Shown here: positions 25,872 through 40,931 of the stretch, one piece after another
Layout of the letters: every line of letters starts with the position of its first letter
Numbering within the stretch: the first letter of the stretch is position 1
Origin: a virus
Taxonomy: Duplodnaviria > Caudoviricetes
IMG/VR virus record: IMGVR_UViG_3300049581_000247
Coordinates: 7,815 to 71,814 of that record
Direction: 5' to 3' (one strand)
Length of the DNA stretch: 64,000 nt
Made by a program: the position numbers and the translations under genes
Notes under the pieces: generated by a model
Told to the model about the DNA's origin: nothing
What the model saw: the letters and a program-made list of their open reading frames with translations, nothing else
Databases searched by the model: none

Positions 25872-27485
25872 TTAAACCACGACCTCCACTGCGCCGGGCT
25901 TGGTCTCGAAGAAGCCCCGCTTCATGCAGTACTTTCGGAAGTACATCGGATAAGTCATGGCATCGAACGGATGCTTCCACTTCGATGTCGGATCGGGAGA
26001 GTCCGGCTGGTCCTTGGCGCGCGGAAGATTGAAGAACATGCCCTTGACGCCCTTGCAGGTGGCCGAGATCAGGATTTGCCGGTCCATCAGGAGCTCCACG
26101 GTCAAGCCAACGCGGGCCGGGACCGACCCGGGCGGCTTTGGGCATTCCACCATGCGGACGGCCTCCAGATTTCCATATCGCTCAGGGTTGCCGGCGATGA
26201 TCTCCTTGGTGTACTCGTAAATATCGGACGCATCGGTCGAGCCCTTGGCCGCCTGGAATTGATTGAAGGCGGAGTTGTCGGAGATGTGGCGGAATTGGAA
26301 TCCATACTTCATGCGCCGGCACCAGTAGGCCATCTTTTCCAGCATCGCATGCGACAGCTTGCGGTAAGGAAGGTGTTTTCCGGTGTAGTAGATTTCATCG
26401 AAGATAATCCAATACGGACCAAACTTGGTCTCCATGCACTGCATGAACACGATGCCGCTGTTCACCTTGCCGAGGTCGTATCCCATCACGATGGGATAAC
26501 CGGGATGCGGCACCAGCCCGCGCCCCATCTTCGCATCGCCGACCACGTGCTGCGCTTCCGAGAAGAACAACTTGAAGATGGCGTCACCCTTGGGGTAGGC
26601 CATCCATCGCCCATCGATGAGCCGCTTGTAAAGGATTGGGTCAGACCGGAAACTACGCTCCAGCTTTGCCCTGTAGCCAGCGGGCAGACGATGCGCGTTC
26701 TCTCCGAACGGGACAAAATAAACCGAGAGCGCGGGGTCTCGGACGATTCCCGGCCGCTCAGGGTCGTTCGGCCACACTCGGCCGCGCGGATCGCCTTCAT
26801 CAAGGACGTAGGCTTCGTCCTCGTAACACAGGGTATAGACCCAGTGATCCGGGTCTTCTGGATTGCAAGTTGCGAGGTACTGCTGGGGGCCGGTGATGCC
26901 CTGACGGCGCCCAAGCTGGGCGTGTGGGAATGTGAAATAATCCCGGCTGGAACAATTCGTTAGCTCCTCCACGTAAATCTGGGAGGGTGCAGGACCCTTG
27001 ATGCGCGACTGCACCATCGAAGCATGCGGGATGGATTTTAGCATCAGCTTGGACCATCCAGTCTGACGGTTGCCAACCCACATGTGGCGGTCCTTGGTCA
27101 CTGAGTCCATGCGCCAGGGCATCGCATCCAGTCCGATGCCGGAAACCCAGCGCGGGATAACCTGATTCTCTAGGTCATAACCAAAGCCCTCGTAACCCGT
27201 GGTCTGGGTTGGGGCGATAGCGATCGTCAGGGCGTTGTAGTTCTCGTAGAGATGGCGGATCACCTTATCTCCAGCCCCGTAGCTTTTCCCGCTGCCTTTC
27301 GGGCCTACCATGATGACGATTTCAGCCGGGTCCTCGAAGGCGAGTCGCTGAGTCGGATTCAGGTCGGGGTACCATCCGTCCGACCGTGTTCGCCTCGGCT
27401 TCTTGGCCGGCGGCGGCTCATCCGGCTCGTTCACGCTCTCAACCAGAGCACGGGCCATCAGATCATCATCGTTCTTGGAGGCCAT
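25872..27485 (-). CDS. terL: Terminase large subunit (537 aa)
   Basis: Walker A GPKGSGKS, Walker B IYVEE, coupling motif ATCNP, nuclease MGYDLG and KHPFDAMTY. Confidence 0.92.
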   Translation of the reverse strand: MASKNDDDLMARALVESVNEPDEPPPAKKPRRTRSDGWYPDLNPTQRLAFEDPAEIVIMVGPKGSGKSYGAGDKVIRHLYENYNALTIAIAPTQTTGYEGFGYDLENQVIPRWVSGIGLDAMPWRMDSVTKDRHMWVGNRQTGWSKLMLKSIPHASMVQSRIKGPAPSQIYVEELTNCSSRDYFTFPHAQLGRRQGITGPQQYLATCNPEDPDHWVYTLCYEDEAYVLDEGDPRGRVWPNDPERPGIVRDPALSVYFVPFGENAHRLPAGYRAKLERSFRSDPILYKRLIDGRWMAYPKGDAIFKLFFSEAQHVVGDAKMGRGLVPHPGYPIVMGYDLGKVNSGIVFMQCMETKFGPYWIIFDEIYYTGKHLPYRKLSHAMLEKMAYWCRRMKYGFQFRHISDNSAFNQFQAAKGSTDASDIYEYTKEIIAGNPERYGNLEAVRMVECPKPPGSVPARVGLTVELLMDRQILISATCKGVKGMFFNLPRAKDQPDSPDPTSKWKHPFDAMTYPMYFRKYCMKRGFFETKPGAVEVVV

Positions 27486-34284: not shown

Positions 34285-34356
34285 TGGAGCCCGCCCCTGG
34301 AATCGAACCAGACCACCAGCCATACAAAGAGCGGTGTTGGCGCCGGCCATGCGGGC
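34285..34356 (-). tRNA. Degenerate tRNA-Thr(UGU)-like element
   Basis: GCCCGC/GCGGGC acceptor, U73 plus CCA, T arm TCTGG-TTCGATT-CCAGG, loop TT-TGT-AT; D arm shortened, anticodon stem mispaired (72 nt). Confidence 0.55.
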
Positions 34357-34364
34357 TAAAGGCG

Positions 34365-35021
34365 TTATCGTGGCGTGCAGAGCACATCAATCTGGACCAT
34401 GTCGAAATTCAGCCAGGACTCGGCCGGCTTGACGTCGTAGCCCAAGGACTGGAGAGGGTCGATGATGTCGCTGTTGGTGTATCCGTTCAGGGCCAGGGCT
34501 TCCTTCTGGATTTCGATGAGCATGACCGGCCGATGGCGAGCAAGGGTCTTCATGGCCCCGGCGATGGCGTCCGGCTCGTACCCCTCGATGTCCATCTTGA
34601 TGAACTCGATTCTGGGTGAGTCGGGCTTGATGACATCGTCCAGTGCGTACATCGCAACATCGCCACCGGAGACAACCCGGGCCATGCCTAGGTTCTTGTT
34701 CTGGTGGTTTTCAACCCCGACGGTGCCGGTTTTCCTGCCCAAGGCGGCATTGACAGGGGTCACGTTGGGGTAGGCCTTCATGTTGTGCGCAAGGCATTCG
34801 TAGGCCAGCTTGTTCGGCTCGAAGGCGATAACCTGGCCATTGGGGCCGACCAGCTCCGAGTAGGTCGAGGTGTGGTCGCCCAGGCAGGCGCCGGCATCGA
34901 TCACGATTCCGCCCCGCGGGATCAGGTGCTTGAACATATCCAGGTACTCCTTGGCTACGTTCAGCCGGCGCTGCTCGATGATCCACTTGCTGAGGTGGGT
35001 GTCACCATCGACCACTGCCAC
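34365..35021 (-). CDS. FkbM-family SAM methyltransferase (about 218 aa)
   Basis: VIDAGACLGDHT, VIAFEP, IKMDIEGYE, PVMLIE. Confidence 0.88.
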   Translation of the reverse strand: MAVVDGDTHLSKWIIEQRRLNVAKEYLDMFKHLIPRGGIVIDAGACLGDHTSTYSELVGPNGQVIAFEPNKLAYECLAHNMKAYPNVTPVNAALGRKTGTVGVENHQNKNLGMARVVSGGDVAMYALDDVIKPDSPRIEFIKMDIEGYEPDAIAGAMKTLARHRPVMLIEIQKEALALNGYTNSDIIDPLQSLGYDVKPAESWLNFDMVQIDVLCTPR

Positions 35022-35049: not shown

Positions 35050-35208
35050 TTACTTTACGCGCCGCAGGTTGGGGTTGGCCTTGGCCGCACCATTGGTGAC
35101 CGCCTTGCGCGTGGCCGCCGCAAGTATGGCGGCGGCATGCCGGTAGGGAATCTTCTGCTTGTGCGCGATCTTGGTCGCGGCGTTCTCAAAACCGTAATGC
35201 TTTGGCAT
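35050..35208 (-). CDS. Small basic phage protein (52 aa)
   Basis: Hand-translated MPKHYGFENAATKIAHKQKIPYRHAAAILAAATRKAVTNGAAKANPNLRRVK. Confidence 0.65.
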   Translation of the reverse strand: MPKHYGFENAATKIAHKQKIPYRHAAAILAAATRKAVTNGAAKANPNLRRVK

Positions 35209-35245
35209 GGGGGCACAATTTACCGCTATACCGGCATTGTCGAGG

Positions 35246-35273
35246 GGGAACTATAACCACCATTATGTTATGA
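35246..35273. other. dif-like Xer recombination site 1 (11-6-11)
   Basis: GGGAACTATAA-CCACCA-TTATGTTATGA; right arm matches the E. coli dif XerD arm TTATGTTAAAT at 8/11, left arm ends in ATAA. Confidence 0.5.
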
Positions 35274-35296
35274 ATTAACCCCAATTTTACTGTTTA

Positions 35297-35326
35297 AGCG
35301 ACCATAAACTGCGTATTATGGTCAAC
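35297..35326. other. cer/dif-like Xer recombination site 2 (11-8-11)
   Basis: AGCGACCATAA-ACTGCGTA-TTATGGTCAAC; 8 bp perfect inverted repeat; right arm 9/11 identical to the ColE1 cer arm TTATGGTAAAT. Confidence 0.55.
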
Positions 35327-35364
35327 GAACTTTCTGGACAAAACCGGCCCACAAAAGTCGTCGC

Positions 35365-35511
35365 TCACGTTTCCCACCCCGACGGCAGTGCCCTATTCGG
35401 GCACCAGCAGGTTTGGCCCCTCCCGTGGTCTATAAGGACGCCGCCAAGCGTGGAGGTCACTCGGCCCGTCCGGCGGCAAACAGGGCACTCCTTGGCCTTA
35501 ATTCCGACCAT
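35365..35511 (-). CDS. Small Cys-containing protein (48 aa)
   Basis: ECPVC..TCWCP. Confidence 0.45.
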   Translation of the reverse strand: MVGIKAKECPVCRRTGRVTSTLGGVLIDHGRGQTCWCPNRALPSGWET

Positions 35512-35516
35512 TACGG

Positions 35517-35945
35517 TCAAGGCTGAGCCGTCCAGCCCAGCTCGCGGCCGGATAGCCTGGCTTCCGGCTTCAGCACCGGGATAACCCGCTCGATGCTGAC
35601 CATCGTTACTCCCAGTTCGGTTTTGCATATTCTTGAGAAGGACCATTCAGACAGGTCGATGATGCGGTTTTCCCTCTTGACCAGCCGCCAGTCGGGACCC
35701 CGCGTTCGGACCGTGACAGTCACCGACCGGCCGGTCTGGAGGCAGGTGACCTTGAGCTCGGTGCCGAGCGGATAAAACCAGGAGGCGCAAGCCGAGCTGT
35801 ACCGGTCGAACTTGGTCCCGTCCGACATGATCTGACCCTCACACTCCCGCCCCATCCACGCCGCCCGTCCGATAACCTCGTCCGGCTCGAAGTTGAACAG
35901 CCGGGTCAGCGCCGCCGAGGCAAGGAAGAGGACTTTCATGTTCAT
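35517..35945 (-). CDS. RlpA-like double-psi beta-barrel protein (142 aa)
   Basis: GRAAW.G..MSDGTKFD..CASWFYPLGTELKVT..GRSVTVTVRTRGP..RIIDLS. Confidence 0.8.
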   Translation of the reverse strand: MNMKVLFLASAALTRLFNFEPDEVIGRAAWMGRECEGQIMSDGTKFDRYSSACASWFYPLGTELKVTCLQTGRSVTVTVRTRGPDWRLVKRENRIIDLSEWSFSRICKTELGVTMVSIERVIPVLKPEARLSGRELGWTAQP

Positions 35946-36886
35946 CTCGCCGCATTCGCCTCGGCCTCGTTCCCGTCGGCTTCAGCTTGGAGCTTGAGGA
36001 GCCTCGGGGTCCAGAACCCCTCCGGCACCTTGCCGAAGATGTCATTCAGGATGGCGGTCAGCTTTGGCCTGGCGGCATCACGCAGCCATATCAGGCCCTC
36101 CGCGTTGACCCTCAGGATCATGAGCGGCTTTCCCGACAGCTTGGCGGCCACGGCGTTGGCGATCTTGTAGAAGGCCACATCCGTCGTATCGCGGGTATTC
36201 TCGGCGTTCATCGCGTGGAGGTAGAGGTGGAGGGCGCGGGCCGGATCGCGCTCGGTGAATCCGATGGCGTCCTTGATCTGCTTCACGAGGACTCCGGCCT
36301 GCGCGGGGTTGACCATCTGCGCCAGCATCAGGGCTCCCGCCATCGGACGGGGGCAGAGCTTGCGGAGCTGGTTCTTGTAGTGGGCGGCGATCACCACGTC
36401 TGCCTCGATATGGGTCAGTATCTTTTTCGCCATCCACGGCTCGAAGGTGGCGCTGCCGCCGATGCCGTGCCGGTAGAGGGCACTGAGGACCGAGGCCATC
36501 AGGGTGGGATGGGGCAGGTCGCTGCGCGTCGTCGACAGCATGTCGCCCAGCGTGCGCTCGGCGCCCTGCCCGATCACCTCGAATTCCTCCGGTTCGCAGC
36601 CGAACCACACCGTCATCTCGGCGGCGACGCCGGCCTCGACCACCGCCCACAGGCGATGCTGGCCCTCGATCAGGGTTTCCTTGCAGTGGTTGCCGTTCGC
36701 GTCGGTGAACGGCTTGGAGAAGGCGATGGGCTCAGGAGTGAGCCTCCATTCCCCCCGCTTCATCGCCAGCGCATAGGAGTCCACCAGATGCTGGCGGATG
36801 GGTCGGTTGTGCGTGTTCTTTTCCAGCCATTTCGTGGCCACCTCCGGGGTGACCTGCATGATCTTTACTTTGCGCGTGTTGCTCAT
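35942..36886 (-). CDS. ParB/Srx-superfamily protein (314 aa)
   Basis: VTPEVATKWL..NRPI..YA..MKRGEW..PIAF..LIEGQHRLWAVV. Confidence 0.72.
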   Translation of the reverse strand: MSNTRKVKIMQVTPEVATKWLEKNTHNRPIRQHLVDSYALAMKRGEWRLTPEPIAFSKPFTDANGNHCKETLIEGQHRLWAVVEAGVAAEMTVWFGCEPEEFEVIGQGAERTLGDMLSTTRSDLPHPTLMASVLSALYRHGIGGSATFEPWMAKKILTHIEADVVIAAHYKNQLRKLCPRPMAGALMLAQMVNPAQAGVLVKQIKDAIGFTERDPARALHLYLHAMNAENTRDTTDVAFYKIANAVAAKLSGKPLMILRVNAEGLIWLRDAARPKLTAILNDIFGKVPEGFWTPRLLKLQAEADGNEAEANAAR

Positions 36887-37940
36887 TGGGTATGTTCGTT
36901 GGGTTGGCAGACAGGTAAATATCGGTGGTTCGGGTGGACGCATGTCCGACCTCGGCGGCAACCTCCCGCTTGGCAGCCATCTCCTCCATCTTGAGCTTCA
37001 CCCGGGATTGGATGTAGGTGGTGCGGAGGCCATGGAAGGTCTTGCCGGCGATCCCGTTTTTCCGGCAGAGTGAGGAGAACTCCGCTGAGATGCGGGCTGG
37101 CCCCCCGGGAGAAAGATACAGGGCTCGGTAGTAGGGGAAGAGGTAGGGCGTCCCATTCTCCATCACGGCGGCGAATACCTTCTTCAGGTCCTCGCTGATC
37201 TTGAGCTCGACGACCGCGCCGGTCTTGGAGGTCCGGCACCGCAAAGTATCGCCATCGAGGTTGTCCTTCTCGAGCTGGCAGATGTCGCCAAGCCGCATGC
37301 CCATGTACCAGGAAATGTGGACCGCGTACCCCCAGAAGGGGTGGAGCGTGCAGGCCTGGAGGATGTGGTGCGCCTCGGCATCGGTCCAGGGCTCATGGTG
37401 CTTCGTCAGCTTCTCGGACTGGCTGAGCTGGGAGGTGACGATTCCGGCCGAATCAGAGTGGTTTGTCAGCATCAGGCCGACTCCGATGCAAAAGGAGCAG
37501 AACGAGGAGCACGCGGCCTTGCGGTTGCGGAGGGTCCCGAGCTTCGTGCCGTCGCCCGGGTTGAAGAAGGCGCGGAAGTGCCTGCCGTCGACCGAGGTGG
37601 TCATCGCGTCCTGGAGTCCGGCCTTTTCGATCCAGGCAAGCAGGACCTTGCGGTAGCTGGCGATGGTCTGATCCGATCGGCCCCGCAGGTGGAGGCGGTC
37701 GAGGAACACGTCGACGGCAGCCGAGACGAGGCACTTCTTCTGTCCGCTGAGCCGGGTGACCAGGTCGCTTGTGATCCCGGCCGACTGTGCCGCCTTCTCC
37801 AGGACGATCAGGCCGCCTTCCCGCGCCATGCGCTTGGCGTCCTCCATGTTCTTCGTCTTCGTGGTCTTCCAGCGAATCCGGCCATGGGCCGGCTTGACCC
37901 CGACGTAGATGAACCCTGACTTGGAATACTTGAACTTCAT
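36732..37940 (-). CDS. Tyrosine recombinase (Xer/integrase family, 402 aa)
   Basis: Complete catalytic set: MRLGD (R), SKT (K), FHGLR (HxxR), VGHAS (H), TDIY (Y); C-terminus overlaps the next gene by 155 nt. Confidence 0.9.
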   Translation of the reverse strand: MKFKYSKSGFIYVGVKPAHGRIRWKTTKTKNMEDAKRMAREGGLIVLEKAAQSAGITSDLVTRLSGQKKCLVSAAVDVFLDRLHLRGRSDQTIASYRKVLLAWIEKAGLQDAMTTSVDGRHFRAFFNPGDGTKLGTLRNRKAACSSFCSFCIGVGLMLTNHSDSAGIVTSQLSQSEKLTKHHEPWTDAEAHHILQACTLHPFWGYAVHISWYMGMRLGDICQLEKDNLDGDTLRCRTSKTGAVVELKISEDLKKVFAAVMENGTPYLFPYYRALYLSPGGPARISAEFSSLCRKNGIAGKTFHGLRTTYIQSRVKLKMEEMAAKREVAAEVGHASTRTTDIYLSANPTNIPNEQHAQSKDHAGHPGGGHEMAGKEHAQPTHPPASGGLLCAGDEAGGMEAHS

Positions 37941-38245
37941 TGGGTCTTGGCGGCGCGGAGCCGGTACTTCGGGAGGCGCGGACTATCGCCATTGATCGGC
38001 TTCGCGCCCAGGAGGTCCCGGGCAAGCCGGATGGCGCGGCGTCCAATGAGCTTGCGGAGAATGGCGACCTGCCGGTTGAGGTCCCGGTTCCTCTCGTTGA
38101 TGGAGGCGACGATCTCCCGCATGTCGGCCTTGACCGACTCGATGGTTTCCTTGTTGCGCCTGATGGTCTCCAGCAAGGCCTGGATGCGCGGGTCGGAATC
38201 GACCTCCTTCGCCGCCTCAGGCGTTAGTGTGATTGACGAACTCAC
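37937..38245 (-). CDS. Coiled-coil hypothetical protein (102 aa)
   Basis: Heptad pattern; ATGA coupling to the recombinase. Confidence 0.6.
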   Translation of the reverse strand: MSSSITLTPEAAKEVDSDPRIQALLETIRRNKETIESVKADMREIVASINERNRDLNRQVAILRKLIGRRAIRLARDLLGAKPINGDSPRLPKYRLRAAKTQ

Positions 38246-38600
38246 GGTAAATGTGAACGAAATGACTGTCCCAGAGTTTGTTGCGCCGAAGGTACAGAAA
38301 CGATCCCTCCGCCATCATCTTGGAATGTTTTTGCAGGGCGTCGCGGTTGTCGAAGTCGACCCCGCAAGCGTTGCTGAATGCGAGCATGTCGGCGAACGGC
38401 ACCCCCGCCCAGCTCGGGGTATAGCTGAGCGCGAGGACCTGCCCACGGGTGAGCCCGGATCGGGCCATCAGCTCCTCGTCGGTCAGCGCCACCACTTGAT
38501 TGCCCGAGATGACCCGCCTCGCCAGCAGGCGGCAGACGATCGGGGTGAAGCGGCTGGCTTTCTGGAGGAGCGTCAGCTTATTGGGCGCTCGCTGCGTCAT
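38217..38600 (-). CDS. HTH-like protein (127 aa)
   Basis: LTDEELMARSGLTRGQVLALS..MLAFSNACGVDF, XRE-like. Confidence 0.55.
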   Translation of the reverse strand: MTQRAPNKLTLLQKASRFTPIVCRLLARRVISGNQVVALTDEELMARSGLTRGQVLALSYTPSWAGVPFADMLAFSNACGVDFDNRDALQKHSKMMAEGSFLYLRRNKLWDSHFVHIYREFVNHTNA

Positions 38601-39512: not shown

Positions 39513-40931
39513 TTATTCATCCCGGTGCTCCCGTTCGATCTGGTCCTGGGCGGCCGCGAGAGCCTCCTGCCTGGCGCGCGCCTCCTCGATGGCGATCTCC
39601 TCCATCAGCTCCTTCTCCCTGGCGCTGGCGGAGCGGGCGATCGCGGCATTGGCTGCATCCTCGGAGGGAATGTCGGAGGAGGCGGTTTCCCCGATGACCG
39701 TCTCCTCTTCCGCCAGCCGGTCAAGCCGTTTGCGGAACCGCTGGACATCGCCCGGCATCACGTAGTACAGGCCGGAAGCGGTCGGCAGGCCGATCATCCC
39801 GAGCCGCTGGACGAAGCGCCGGACGATCTCCGGGGTGTATGTCTTGTCGTTGTTTTTCCCAACCGCCGCCATGCTGACGTAGGGGATGTCATACCGGCCC
39901 TGGTCGTCGTTGAGAAACCCGAGCGCATGCCCGGCGGTCCAGGCCAGGGCGCCGGGGAGAAGGTCCATGACGGCAAAATCGGACCGCTCGAAGCCCACAT
40001 TGGAGGAGCCCGGGATTCGCACGATCTTCCCGGAACTGTCGAGGTAGTCCGGCCTGGCCGGCCCGCGAAGATTCAGGTGCGCCTGATGCGCCGGAGCCGG
40101 GGGACTGAGGTGTGTCGAACCCTTCTCGAGGAAGTAATCGGCGGGGCGCTGATAGGGATAGGAGTGTCTCGGGTATCCGTAGTCGTCGGCGAGGATGTTC
40201 GATCCGATTTGCGTCTGAAATCGGACGAGGTTTTCGTCCCACCTCGGGGGATAGGAGATGTCCTCTCCCACGGGATTTTTGAGCATGTACTCCAGGGTTG
40301 CCGCATGCAACCCCTTCGGGAGAATCTCGGCGATGTTCTCGGGCAGCTCGAACCAGGATGAGAGCGTCGCATTGAAGAACATCTGGGAGGCGGCGCGGAT
40401 CAGGTCGCCATTCTCCGCAATCTCCCCGGGCGATCGGATGCAGACCCGGGAATGCAGGTCGTGCGTCTCCTTGCCGAGATGACCGACGGTCAGGTGCAGG
40501 CCGACCACGCCGGCTTCGTCGGTGTGGTCCGTCCCTGATTGGAAGGCGGTGGCCGAACAGTGGTGATGAACCGAGCCCATCCTCTGCCACGGATCAGGGA
40601 AGAGCGCCATGTCCTCGTTGAAGTTGGGGTGATCGGGCAGCTCCCGTGTCGTCATCCCGGATGGATAGCGCTGGGGGAAGGCATGAGCCCGCCACTCCTT
40701 GGTCGCATCGTTGTAGTACAGGCGGACCTGGACCTCGTCCGACTTGTGCTTTTGGAAGAAGGCGATGATAGTCTGCCAGAGGGACATCTTGATTCTGCCG
40801 CCGTTCCACGCCATCCATGGGTCGGAGGAGGGGATTTCCCGGTCGGGGAAGTAGCCGTAGAATCCGTTGAGATTCTTGAGCTTGTAGACCTTGCCGTCCT
40901 TGATGATCTCGCCCGGAGTTGCCTTGCTCAT
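39513..40931 (-). CDS. JAB/MPN+ metallopeptidase (DUB-like) with long C-terminal extension (472 aa)
   Basis: DEVQVRLYY (catalytic Glu region) and GSVHHHCSATAFQSGTDHTDE (HxH..S..D motif). Confidence 0.85.
   Translation of the reverse strand: MSKATPGEIIKDGKVYKLKNLNGFYGYFPDREIPSSDPWMAWNGGRIKMSLWQTIIAFFQKHKSDEVQVRLYYNDATKEWRAHAFPQRYPSGMTTRELPDHPNFNEDMALFPDPWQRMGSVHHHCSATAFQSGTDHTDEAGVVGLHLTVGHLGKETHDLHSRVCIRSPGEIAENGDLIRAASQMFFNATLSSWFELPENIAEILPKGLHAATLEYMLKNPVGEDISYPPRWDENLVRFQTQIGSNILADDYGYPRHSYPYQRPADYFLEKGSTHLSPPAPAHQAHLNLRGPARPDYLDSSGKIVRIPGSSNVGFERSDFAVMDLLPGALAWTAGHALGFLNDDQGRYDIPYVSMAAVGKNNDKTYTPEIVRRFVQRLGMIGLPTASGLYYVMPGDVQRFRKRLDRLAEEETVIGETASSDIPSEDAANAAIARSASAREKELMEEIAIEEARARQEALAAAQDQIEREHRDE

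Follow-up and report, generated by a model that had tools for sequence, protein, structure and literature searches.

The sites described here lie in the genome of a temperate phage of 72 kb, available as a 71,814-bp IMG/VR virus record. Bases 7815-71814 of this record make up the 64-kb stretch of DNA that was analysed, hereafter the window. The record has direct terminal repeats and a completeness rating of 100%. The window has a GC content of about 60%, and with few exceptions its genes lie on the minus strand and point leftward. The phage encodes a terminase and a portal protein; the terminase gives only weak matches to actinophages, and among GenBank phages our searches returned neither a DNA match nor a protein match. 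In transcription order, the integrase gene is followed by the gene of a 314-aa ParB-fold protein, an RlpA/DPBB-like gene, a non-coding gap of 308 bp, a 52-aa ORF, an FkbM-family gene and a tRNA-like gene (Table 1). Four small genes are found just upstream of the integrase, and some 9 kb of other genes, the site-bearing gap included, separate it from the terminase.

Table 1. Coordinates of the features discussed, in window positions
Feature	Position	Strand	Remarks
Large terminase	25872-27485		Several kb beyond the tRNA-like gene, with a DNA methyltransferase and structural genes
tRNA-Thr(UGU)-like gene, encoded CCA	34285-34356	-	Predicted by ARAGORN; T-run after the gene
FkbM-family methyltransferase	34365-35021	-	
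52-aa ORF, no family assigned	35050-35208	-	First gene downstream (leftward) of the gap
Non-coding gap, 308 bp	35209-35516		Holds both sites; between two minus-strand genes; ORF-poor
Site 1, 11-6-11: GGGAACTATAA-CCACCA-TTATGTTATGA	35246-35273		Inner part …CTATAA-CCACCA-TTATGTTA…
Site 2, 11-8-11: AGCGACCATAA-ACTGCGTA-TTATGGTCAAC	35297-35326		
Two overlapping inverted half-sites, GACCATTACGGTC	35506-35518		Related to the arms of site 2; at the stop codon of the upstream gene
RlpA/DPBB-like lytic transglycosylase domain protein	35517-35945	-	Stop codon adjoins the gap
ParB/KorB-fold protein, 314 aa, GQHR motif, phrog_5931	35942-36886	-	0.6 kb from the sites
Tyrosine integrase, 402 aa, lambda-type	36732-37940	-	1.4 kb from the sites, upstream in the leftward array
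PRTRC_A match, weak	39513-40931		Upstream of the integrase in transcription order

A preliminary description of this DNA had placed two tandem Xer-like sites in an AT-rich intergenic patch. On re-reading the window, both sequences and their positions proved correct to the base, and no other 80-mer of the 64 kb is as rich in AT as the patch (33.8% GC versus about 60%). It occupies the left part of the gap, the right part being GC-rich. Two sizeable non-coding stretches are present within 4 kb of the integrase gene, and the 308-bp gap is the only one of them that is AT-rich. No credible ORF was found in the gap (35209-35516); a plus-strand ORF at 35318-35584, whose ATG falls inside site 2, was rejected, as its product is of low complexity and it overlaps the neighbouring gene. 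No Rfam family reached its gathering score there either; the sole match, to Actino-ugpB, is at chance level, and the corresponding RNA reading was rejected. Separately, an 11-bp inverted repeat, AGTGCCCTATT / AACAGGGCACT, encloses the GC-rich right half of the gap (35387-35489), and the minus strand of the whole gap folds more stably than shuffled sequences (z = -2.7); this right half may contain a small structured RNA or a terminator-like element.

The two sites are arranged in tandem, 23 bp apart, and both fit within 81 bp. Site 1 is a weak palindrome, since only its inner ATAA/TTAT pair is symmetric. The core of site 2 (35300-35323) is a perfect 8-N8-8 palindrome, GACCATAA-ACTGCGTA-TTATGGTC, which has an asymmetric 8-bp spacer and occurs once in the window. 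Perfect palindromes with 8-bp arms and spacers of 6-8 bp are as a class more numerous, with 13 in the window versus 4.6 in shuffles. One pattern, TTAT(R)(K)T, is shared by all four half-sites of sites 1 and 2. The related half-sites at 35506-35518 may represent an arm-type site or a chance occurrence. GACCATWA-like copies begin at 35258, 35300, 35316, 35506 and 35511; the same count was reached in 6 of 60 shuffles, and the enrichment of this repeat family within the gap, the half-sites at 35506-35518 included, is weak.

The sites had been proposed to be dif/cer-like, a claim that holds for their inner part and fails for the arms as a whole. Over all 22 arm positions they score 14 to 15 against E. 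coli dif or ColE1 cer, and several coding positions of the window score equally. Against E. coli dif, site 1 has 6 of 11 positions in the XerC arm and 8 of 11 in the XerD arm, a sum of 14/22 that other, coding positions of the window reach or surpass. As coding positions match the whole-arm scores, the outer arm positions, which distinguish XerC from XerD binding, are not dif-like. Indeed, the distinction between outer XerC (…GCGCATAA-like) and outer XerD (…TTAAAT-like) arms is missing from site 1, where the outer XerD arm reads ATGA instead of AAAT.

The inner positions behave otherwise. A published list of about 700 predicted dif sites displays a near-invariant ATAA-N6-TTATGT(A/C/T)A across phyla (PMC3025954, supplement), and we wrote IUPAC core patterns that follow these conserved positions; the patterns were written after the sites had been seen, which weakens the statistics that follow. 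Site 1 corresponds to ATAA-N6-TTATGTNA with 0 mismatches, where 0.06 occurrences per window are expected at up to 1 mismatch: it has ATAA and TTAT around a 6-bp central region, followed by the TTATGT(N)A start of a XerD arm. Site 2 is an exact ATAA-N8-TTATGKTNAA, a cer-like pattern expected 0.00 times and absent from 100 shuffles; it shares the 8-bp spacer and TTATGGT with cer, and its arms are identical over 8 bp. No further ATAA-N6-8-TTATG site was found in the whole 71.8-kb genome. A loose pattern occurred about 5 times in some 1.2 Mb of other phage loci, and 3 times in each of two Acinetobacter plasmid loci of 2.5-3 kb that served as positive control. Judged on these sequence comparisons, the resemblance to the core of Xer sites, outer arms excluded, is real and goes beyond chance.

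Comparison with predicted dif sites, which the preliminary description had suggested, gave a mixed answer. The invariant core is matched, but the CCACCA spacer of site 1 is absent from all entries of the list of about 700. This spacer is found elsewhere: when a 93-bp patch was compared by BLAST with 72,556 plasmids, 104 records matched, 93 of them from Acinetobacter, and the aligned Acinetobacter site, which is unannotated, reads …CGTATAA-CCACCA-TTATGTTAAAT. The XerC/D 'pdif' sites of Acinetobacter have this form (PMC13141974). Site 1 is identical over 19/19 contiguous nucleotides, spacer included, to the pdif of A. variabilis pAV_175-3 and A. indicus p80-1-2-p3. As a separate observation, the 11-mer ACTGCGTATTA at 35308-35318, which covers the spacer of site 2 and the start of its right arm, recurs as the XerC arm in the list's predicted dif for Vibrio splendidus chromosome II; this is probably a coincidence, because no XerD arm is present in that register.

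The complete tyrosine recombinase reported near the sites is confirmed, but it is of the lambda type, with a predicted arm-binding domain, and not Xer-like. It is the sole PF00589 gene of the genome, and it has the catalytic residues R216, K239, H303, R306, H333 and Y342, all six of which vary little or not at all across a family alignment of 40 members. Its best sequence relatives of solved structure are lambda integrase chains, residue 60 of the query being aligned with lambda residue 64. In the AlphaFold model (mean pLDDT 85; 82-96 in the N-domain block), residues 1-41 form three strands and a helix (beta-beta-beta-alpha), after which come a long linker helix, a core-binding domain made of helices and the catalytic domain. 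In the Foldseek ranking, full-length lambda Int (1z1b/1z1g/5j0n) takes first place, over some 350-390 columns, with XerA, XerH and XerD below it. By its modelled fold and its closest relatives, then, this is a heterobivalent, arm-binding integrase of the lambda type rather than of the Xer type, and the phage thus has an integration enzyme of its own. Heterobivalent integrases act on a composite attP.

The question arises as to what the two sites are for. Five scenarios are considered: an attP crossover region, substrates of host Xer recombinases, a promoter/operator region, chance resemblance, and binding sites of the ParB-fold protein.

Given a lambda-type integrase, the simplest reading of the AT-rich patch is that it is the attP crossover (core) region on which the phage's own enzyme acts, and this is the scenario that we tentatively favour, while recognising that it may well prove wrong. 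Part of what is expected of a lambda-type attP is present. Such an attP has a heterobivalent integrase encoded nearby and a core of inverted sites around an overlap of 6-8 bp, set in some 250 bp of AT-rich DNA; here there is a lambda-type integrase and, in site 2, an 8-N8-8 core within an AT-rich gap of 308 bp. No second integrase accompanies this complete enzyme in a genome that has direct terminal repeats and is rated 100% complete, its N-terminal beta-beta-beta-alpha domain is modelled with confidence, and lambda Int is its best match in both fold and sequence; the gap, for its part, is the only AT-rich non-coding stretch of any size within 4 kb of the gene. Site 2, unique in the window, is built like a recombinase core (an asymmetric spacer of 6-8 bp between inverted arms), its symmetric arms suit one recombinase species, and a single pattern covers all four half-sites. 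ParB/KorB operators are contiguous palindromes and fit this geometry poorly, and so would a simple helix-turn-helix dimer, because the half-site centres are about 16 bp apart.

If the attP scenario holds, the patch would be a tyrosine-recombinase target, likely the attP core, with the integrase encoded 1.4 kb upstream in the same leftward array. Site 2 would be the best candidate place for strand exchange, because one recombinase species could bind both of its identical arms: each 8-bp arm would take up one core-binding plus catalytic module of the integrase, and direction would be set by the asymmetric 8-bp spacer as the overlap region. Site 1 could act as a second, weaker core-type site or as an accessory site, its half-sites also fitting TTAT(R)(K)T. 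The N-terminal domain of the integrase would bind arm-type sites elsewhere in the gap, and the AT-rich DNA would aid bending. The likeness to dif might mean that attB is itself dif-like, or might be no more than a feature that the cores of tyrosine-recombinase sites have in common. The data show the sites and their non-randomness, the domain build and catalytic residues of the integrase, and the arrangement of the genes; the identity of the binding protein, the position of strand exchange and integration at this locus are inferred.

Compared with lambda attP, which consists of a C-O-C' core plus arm sites, the phage locus is similar in its AT-rich non-coding DNA near int, in a dyad with an asymmetric spacer of 6-8 bp, and in an integrase that shares the three-domain build and catalytic residues of lambda Int. 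It differs in its candidate core, where perfect arms of 8 bp flank a spacer of 8 bp, whereas lambda has imperfect arms and a 7-bp overlap; in its second core-like site 23 bp away; in the two genes between int and site; and in its arm-type repeats, which are not demonstrable. Phage P1, where Cre acts on loxP (13-8-13) in cyclisation and dimer resolution, offers another comparison: symmetric arms, an asymmetric 8-bp spacer and a phage-encoded tyrosine recombinase are common to both systems. Cre, however, is without an arm-binding domain, the arms of loxP are 13 bp long versus 8 bp here, and P1 is a plasmid prophage with ParAB, whereas no partition NTPase was found in our phage.

Several observations argue against an attP at this place. 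None of attB, attL and attR was found, nor any lysogen junction. Two genes separate the gap from int, two core-like sites 23 bp apart are unusual in a lambda-type layout, and the candidate arm-type repeats are not significantly enriched, as the shuffles described above indicate. An exact Xer core together with a 19-nt identity to pdif would be unexpected in an unrelated integrase core, unless attB is dif-like. There is also a competitor, as the tRNA-like gene (34285-34356) is a plausible alternative candidate for attP. Rfam searches extended to E<=1 yielded no tRNA at this position, and the D-arm region does not look canonical; the element could be an odd phage tRNA, a tRNA-like RNA or the real attP.

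Relatives of the integrase also weigh on the attP scenario. One homologue is above 40% identity, and an exhaustive profile-free search returned 790 more distant ones; viral, metagenome and genome collections, scanned with one protein or with two sequences, gave no usable close relative, and the sole match in the genome collection, from Helicobacter, was spurious. We compared 47 IMG/VR loci, taken with the 40-sequence integrase alignment, in which integrase identity is 25-32%. In about 20 of the 47, a homologue of the gene at 38217-38600 is followed by the integrase, a gene of about 225 aa, the terminase and the portal, the terminases being 42-47% identical to that of the phage. These operons are tight and co-directional, without a non-coding gap beside int, and neither a Xer-like motif near int nor related or conserved dyads in non-coding gaps were found in the 47 loci. 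Conservation of the sites in related phages, to which the preliminary description had tied its proposal, is thus not seen near int in these loci, nor beside the ParB-like homologues of three metagenome loci, short or differently organised, that a degenerate pattern for the C-terminal motif of the ParB-like protein had retrieved; all are distant relatives, and absence at 25-32% integrase identity carries little weight as to conservation. No exact copy of the 20-mer of site 2 turned up in IMG/VR. On many contigs of this integrase family (among loci L005-L043) int lies 1-2 kb from the contig end.

In the second scenario, the sites are substrates of host XerC/XerD, or of a single host Xer protein: site 1 would be a dif-like attP of the type used by IMEXs, or the pair would form a cer-like multimer-resolution site. 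We regard it as possible, although rather unlikely. Its strength lies in the detail of the match, that is, exact invariant-core matches in both sites, each expected at most 0.06 times per window by chance; a right arm of site 1, TTATGTTA, identical at 8/8 positions to the inner part of the XerD arm that dif has across many phyla; and the 19/19 identity, CCACCA spacer included, with Acinetobacter pdif, in line with the 93 of 104 plasmid matches from that genus. Relatives of the integrase have no non-coding gap next to int, so that its own site may lie elsewhere. Moreover, a partial, 17-bp dif-like attP is enough in known IMEXs (PMC12715192).

The arms speak a different language. The XerC arm reaches 6-7/11, which is at chance level, and the XerD arm is without the outer AAAT; the symmetric arms of site 2 suit one recombinase species and not a XerC/XerD pair; chromosomal dif sites are not known to have a spacer of 8 bp; and the published list of about 700 dif sites contains no CCACCA spacer. 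In plasmid multimer-resolution sites of the cer/psi type, the central region is of 8 bp (cer) or 6 bp (psi), the XerC and XerD arms are asymmetric, and about 180 bp of accessory DNA is bound by PepA together with ArgR or ArcA. The phage sites are like dif, cer and pdif in their inner ATAA / TTATG(T/G)T arms and in central regions of 6 or 8 bp, and unlike them in outer arm positions that are not conserved and in the symmetric arms of site 2; furthermore, they are carried by a tailed phage of 60% GC and not by a chromosome terminus or a plasmid.

The nature of the phage is a further argument against host Xer recombinases. IMEXs, as described, are filamentous or double jelly-roll phages that lack an integrase, depend on the host XerCD for integration and carry full or half (17-bp) dif mimics (PMC12715192). 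Like CTXphi, VGJphi, TLCphi and the dif-type double jelly-roll phages, our phage has a dif-like site on a temperate phage genome; unlike them, it is 72 kb long, with terminase and portal, and itself encodes a complete integrase. IMEX-like integration at the dif of the host, one of the two roles that the preliminary description had envisaged, is therefore weakened, both by this lambda-type enzyme and by the outer arms, which are not dif-like. CTXphi has two sites that are inverted, whereas the two sites of our phage are in tandem.

The other envisaged role, dimer resolution in a plasmid-like prophage, found no support either. Neither a partition NTPase of the ParA/CbiA or ParM type (PF13614, PF01656, PF06406) nor a ParB_N domain (PF02195) was matched in the complete genome, even at E<=1, and nothing else pointed to a plasmid lifestyle; without a partition ATPase, the idea of a plasmid prophage is left unsupported. 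The neighbouring gene that had been called ParB-like, 0.6 kb from the sites, deserves this name at the level of fold, but not at that of the Pfam and NCBIfam ParB families, none of which matched the 314-aa protein. In the ParB/KorB family, a ParB N-terminal domain precedes a helix-turn-helix DNA-binding domain. The model of the 314-aa protein (pLDDT 88) has ParB, Spo0J, Noc and KorB as top Foldseek matches over 210-240 columns, with weak E values of 0.01-0.1. The protein has 36 full-length homologues of 41-55% identity, several of them on contigs of 60-73 kb, and belongs to a family of phage proteins of about 300 aa in which a GQHRL motif is invariant and GFTERDPxRALHxY is conserved, and for which there is no Pfam or NCBIfam model. 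The N-terminal domain of this family is on its own very common in IMG/VR (>540 loci). A 51%-identical ParB-like gene on a 250,821-bp metagenome contig (Ga0302320_10000031, 3895-5743; locus L132) has no integrase upstream, and the next gene has a CxxxCxxC motif that is radical-SAM-like; members of the family thus also occur apart from integrases. In closer relatives, the pair formed by int and the ParB-like gene nevertheless looks conserved: the ParB-like homologue P0171 and the integrase homologue P0002 are both on contigs of 3,955 bp, and P0165 and P0012 both on contigs of 5,532 bp, so that each pair presumably shares a contig, as the equal sizes suggest.

A third scenario makes the patch the promoter/operator of a leftward unit that starts with the 52-aa ORF and continues with the FkbM and tRNA-like genes, the dyads being sites for a phage regulator. 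The preliminary description had already named this alternative, which we consider unlikely. The most AT-rich stretch of the window does lie directly upstream of the next co-directional gene, and on the minus strand TTAATT-17-TATAGT (weak) and GTAAAA-17-CATAAT can be read as promoters overlapping site 1. These candidates, found by hand, nevertheless reach only 8/12, and a consensus scan detected no sigma-70-type promoter in the gap. Dyad spacings of 6 and 8 bp would be unusual for the operators of one dimeric repressor, the motif is present nowhere else in the genome, and the detailed match to the Xer core is left without a reason.

Chance resemblance in an AT-rich spacer with no site-specific function, the fourth scenario, seems improbable to us, although it should be kept in mind. 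The finding was drawn from a very large scan, in which rare coincidences are expected, and the core patterns are post hoc; whole-arm similarity to dif and cer is at chance level, palindromes with 8-bp arms are common in the window, and no conservation was shown. Against this, two exact core matches within 81 bp have to be explained, when 1.2 Mb of other phage DNA yields about 5 occurrences of the loose pattern and no other such site exists in the genome, and their position is non-coding and close to the integrase.

Finally, the cognate sites of ParB/KorB-type proteins are often beside their gene, and ParB, Noc and KorB sites are contiguous palindromes of 13-16 bp. That the dyads are centromere-like or regulatory binding sites of the neighbouring ParB/KorB-fold protein is nonetheless highly improbable, because the conservation of its gene (36 homologues, on phage-sized contigs) and its top fold matches to ParB, Spo0J, Noc and KorB over 210-240 columns are set against the weakness of these matches (E 0.01-0.1), the 8-N8-8 dyad unlike the contiguous palindromes, a ParA partner that was not found, and the lack of a similar motif after the homologous genes in loci L132 and L134.

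What the locus would mean differs between these scenarios. Should the patch simply be the phage's own attP, the result would be an ordinary one, concerning a known kind of site, and it would fix the likely crossover site for an integrase family about which little is known and whose genes usually lie next to that of the terminase. It is also conceivable, if doubtful, that a tailed, integrase-encoding phage has working Xer-type sites, and would thus be the first tailed phage to use XerCD, or that its lambda-type integrase targets dif or a dif-like sequence. Xer involvement or dif targeting would be new here, because the IMEXs described are integrase-less filamentous or double jelly-roll phages (PMC12715192). 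Use of XerCD would mean integration at dif or the resolution of circular phage forms; working Xer-type sites or a dif-aimed integrase would widen the range of elements that exploit the site of chromosome-dimer resolution, and either would provide a test case for the evolution of recombinase target choice. As a last observation, another phage contig has a palindromic ATAA-N-TTATG site (L101:757-774) at 4.3 kb from a ParB-N-like gene.
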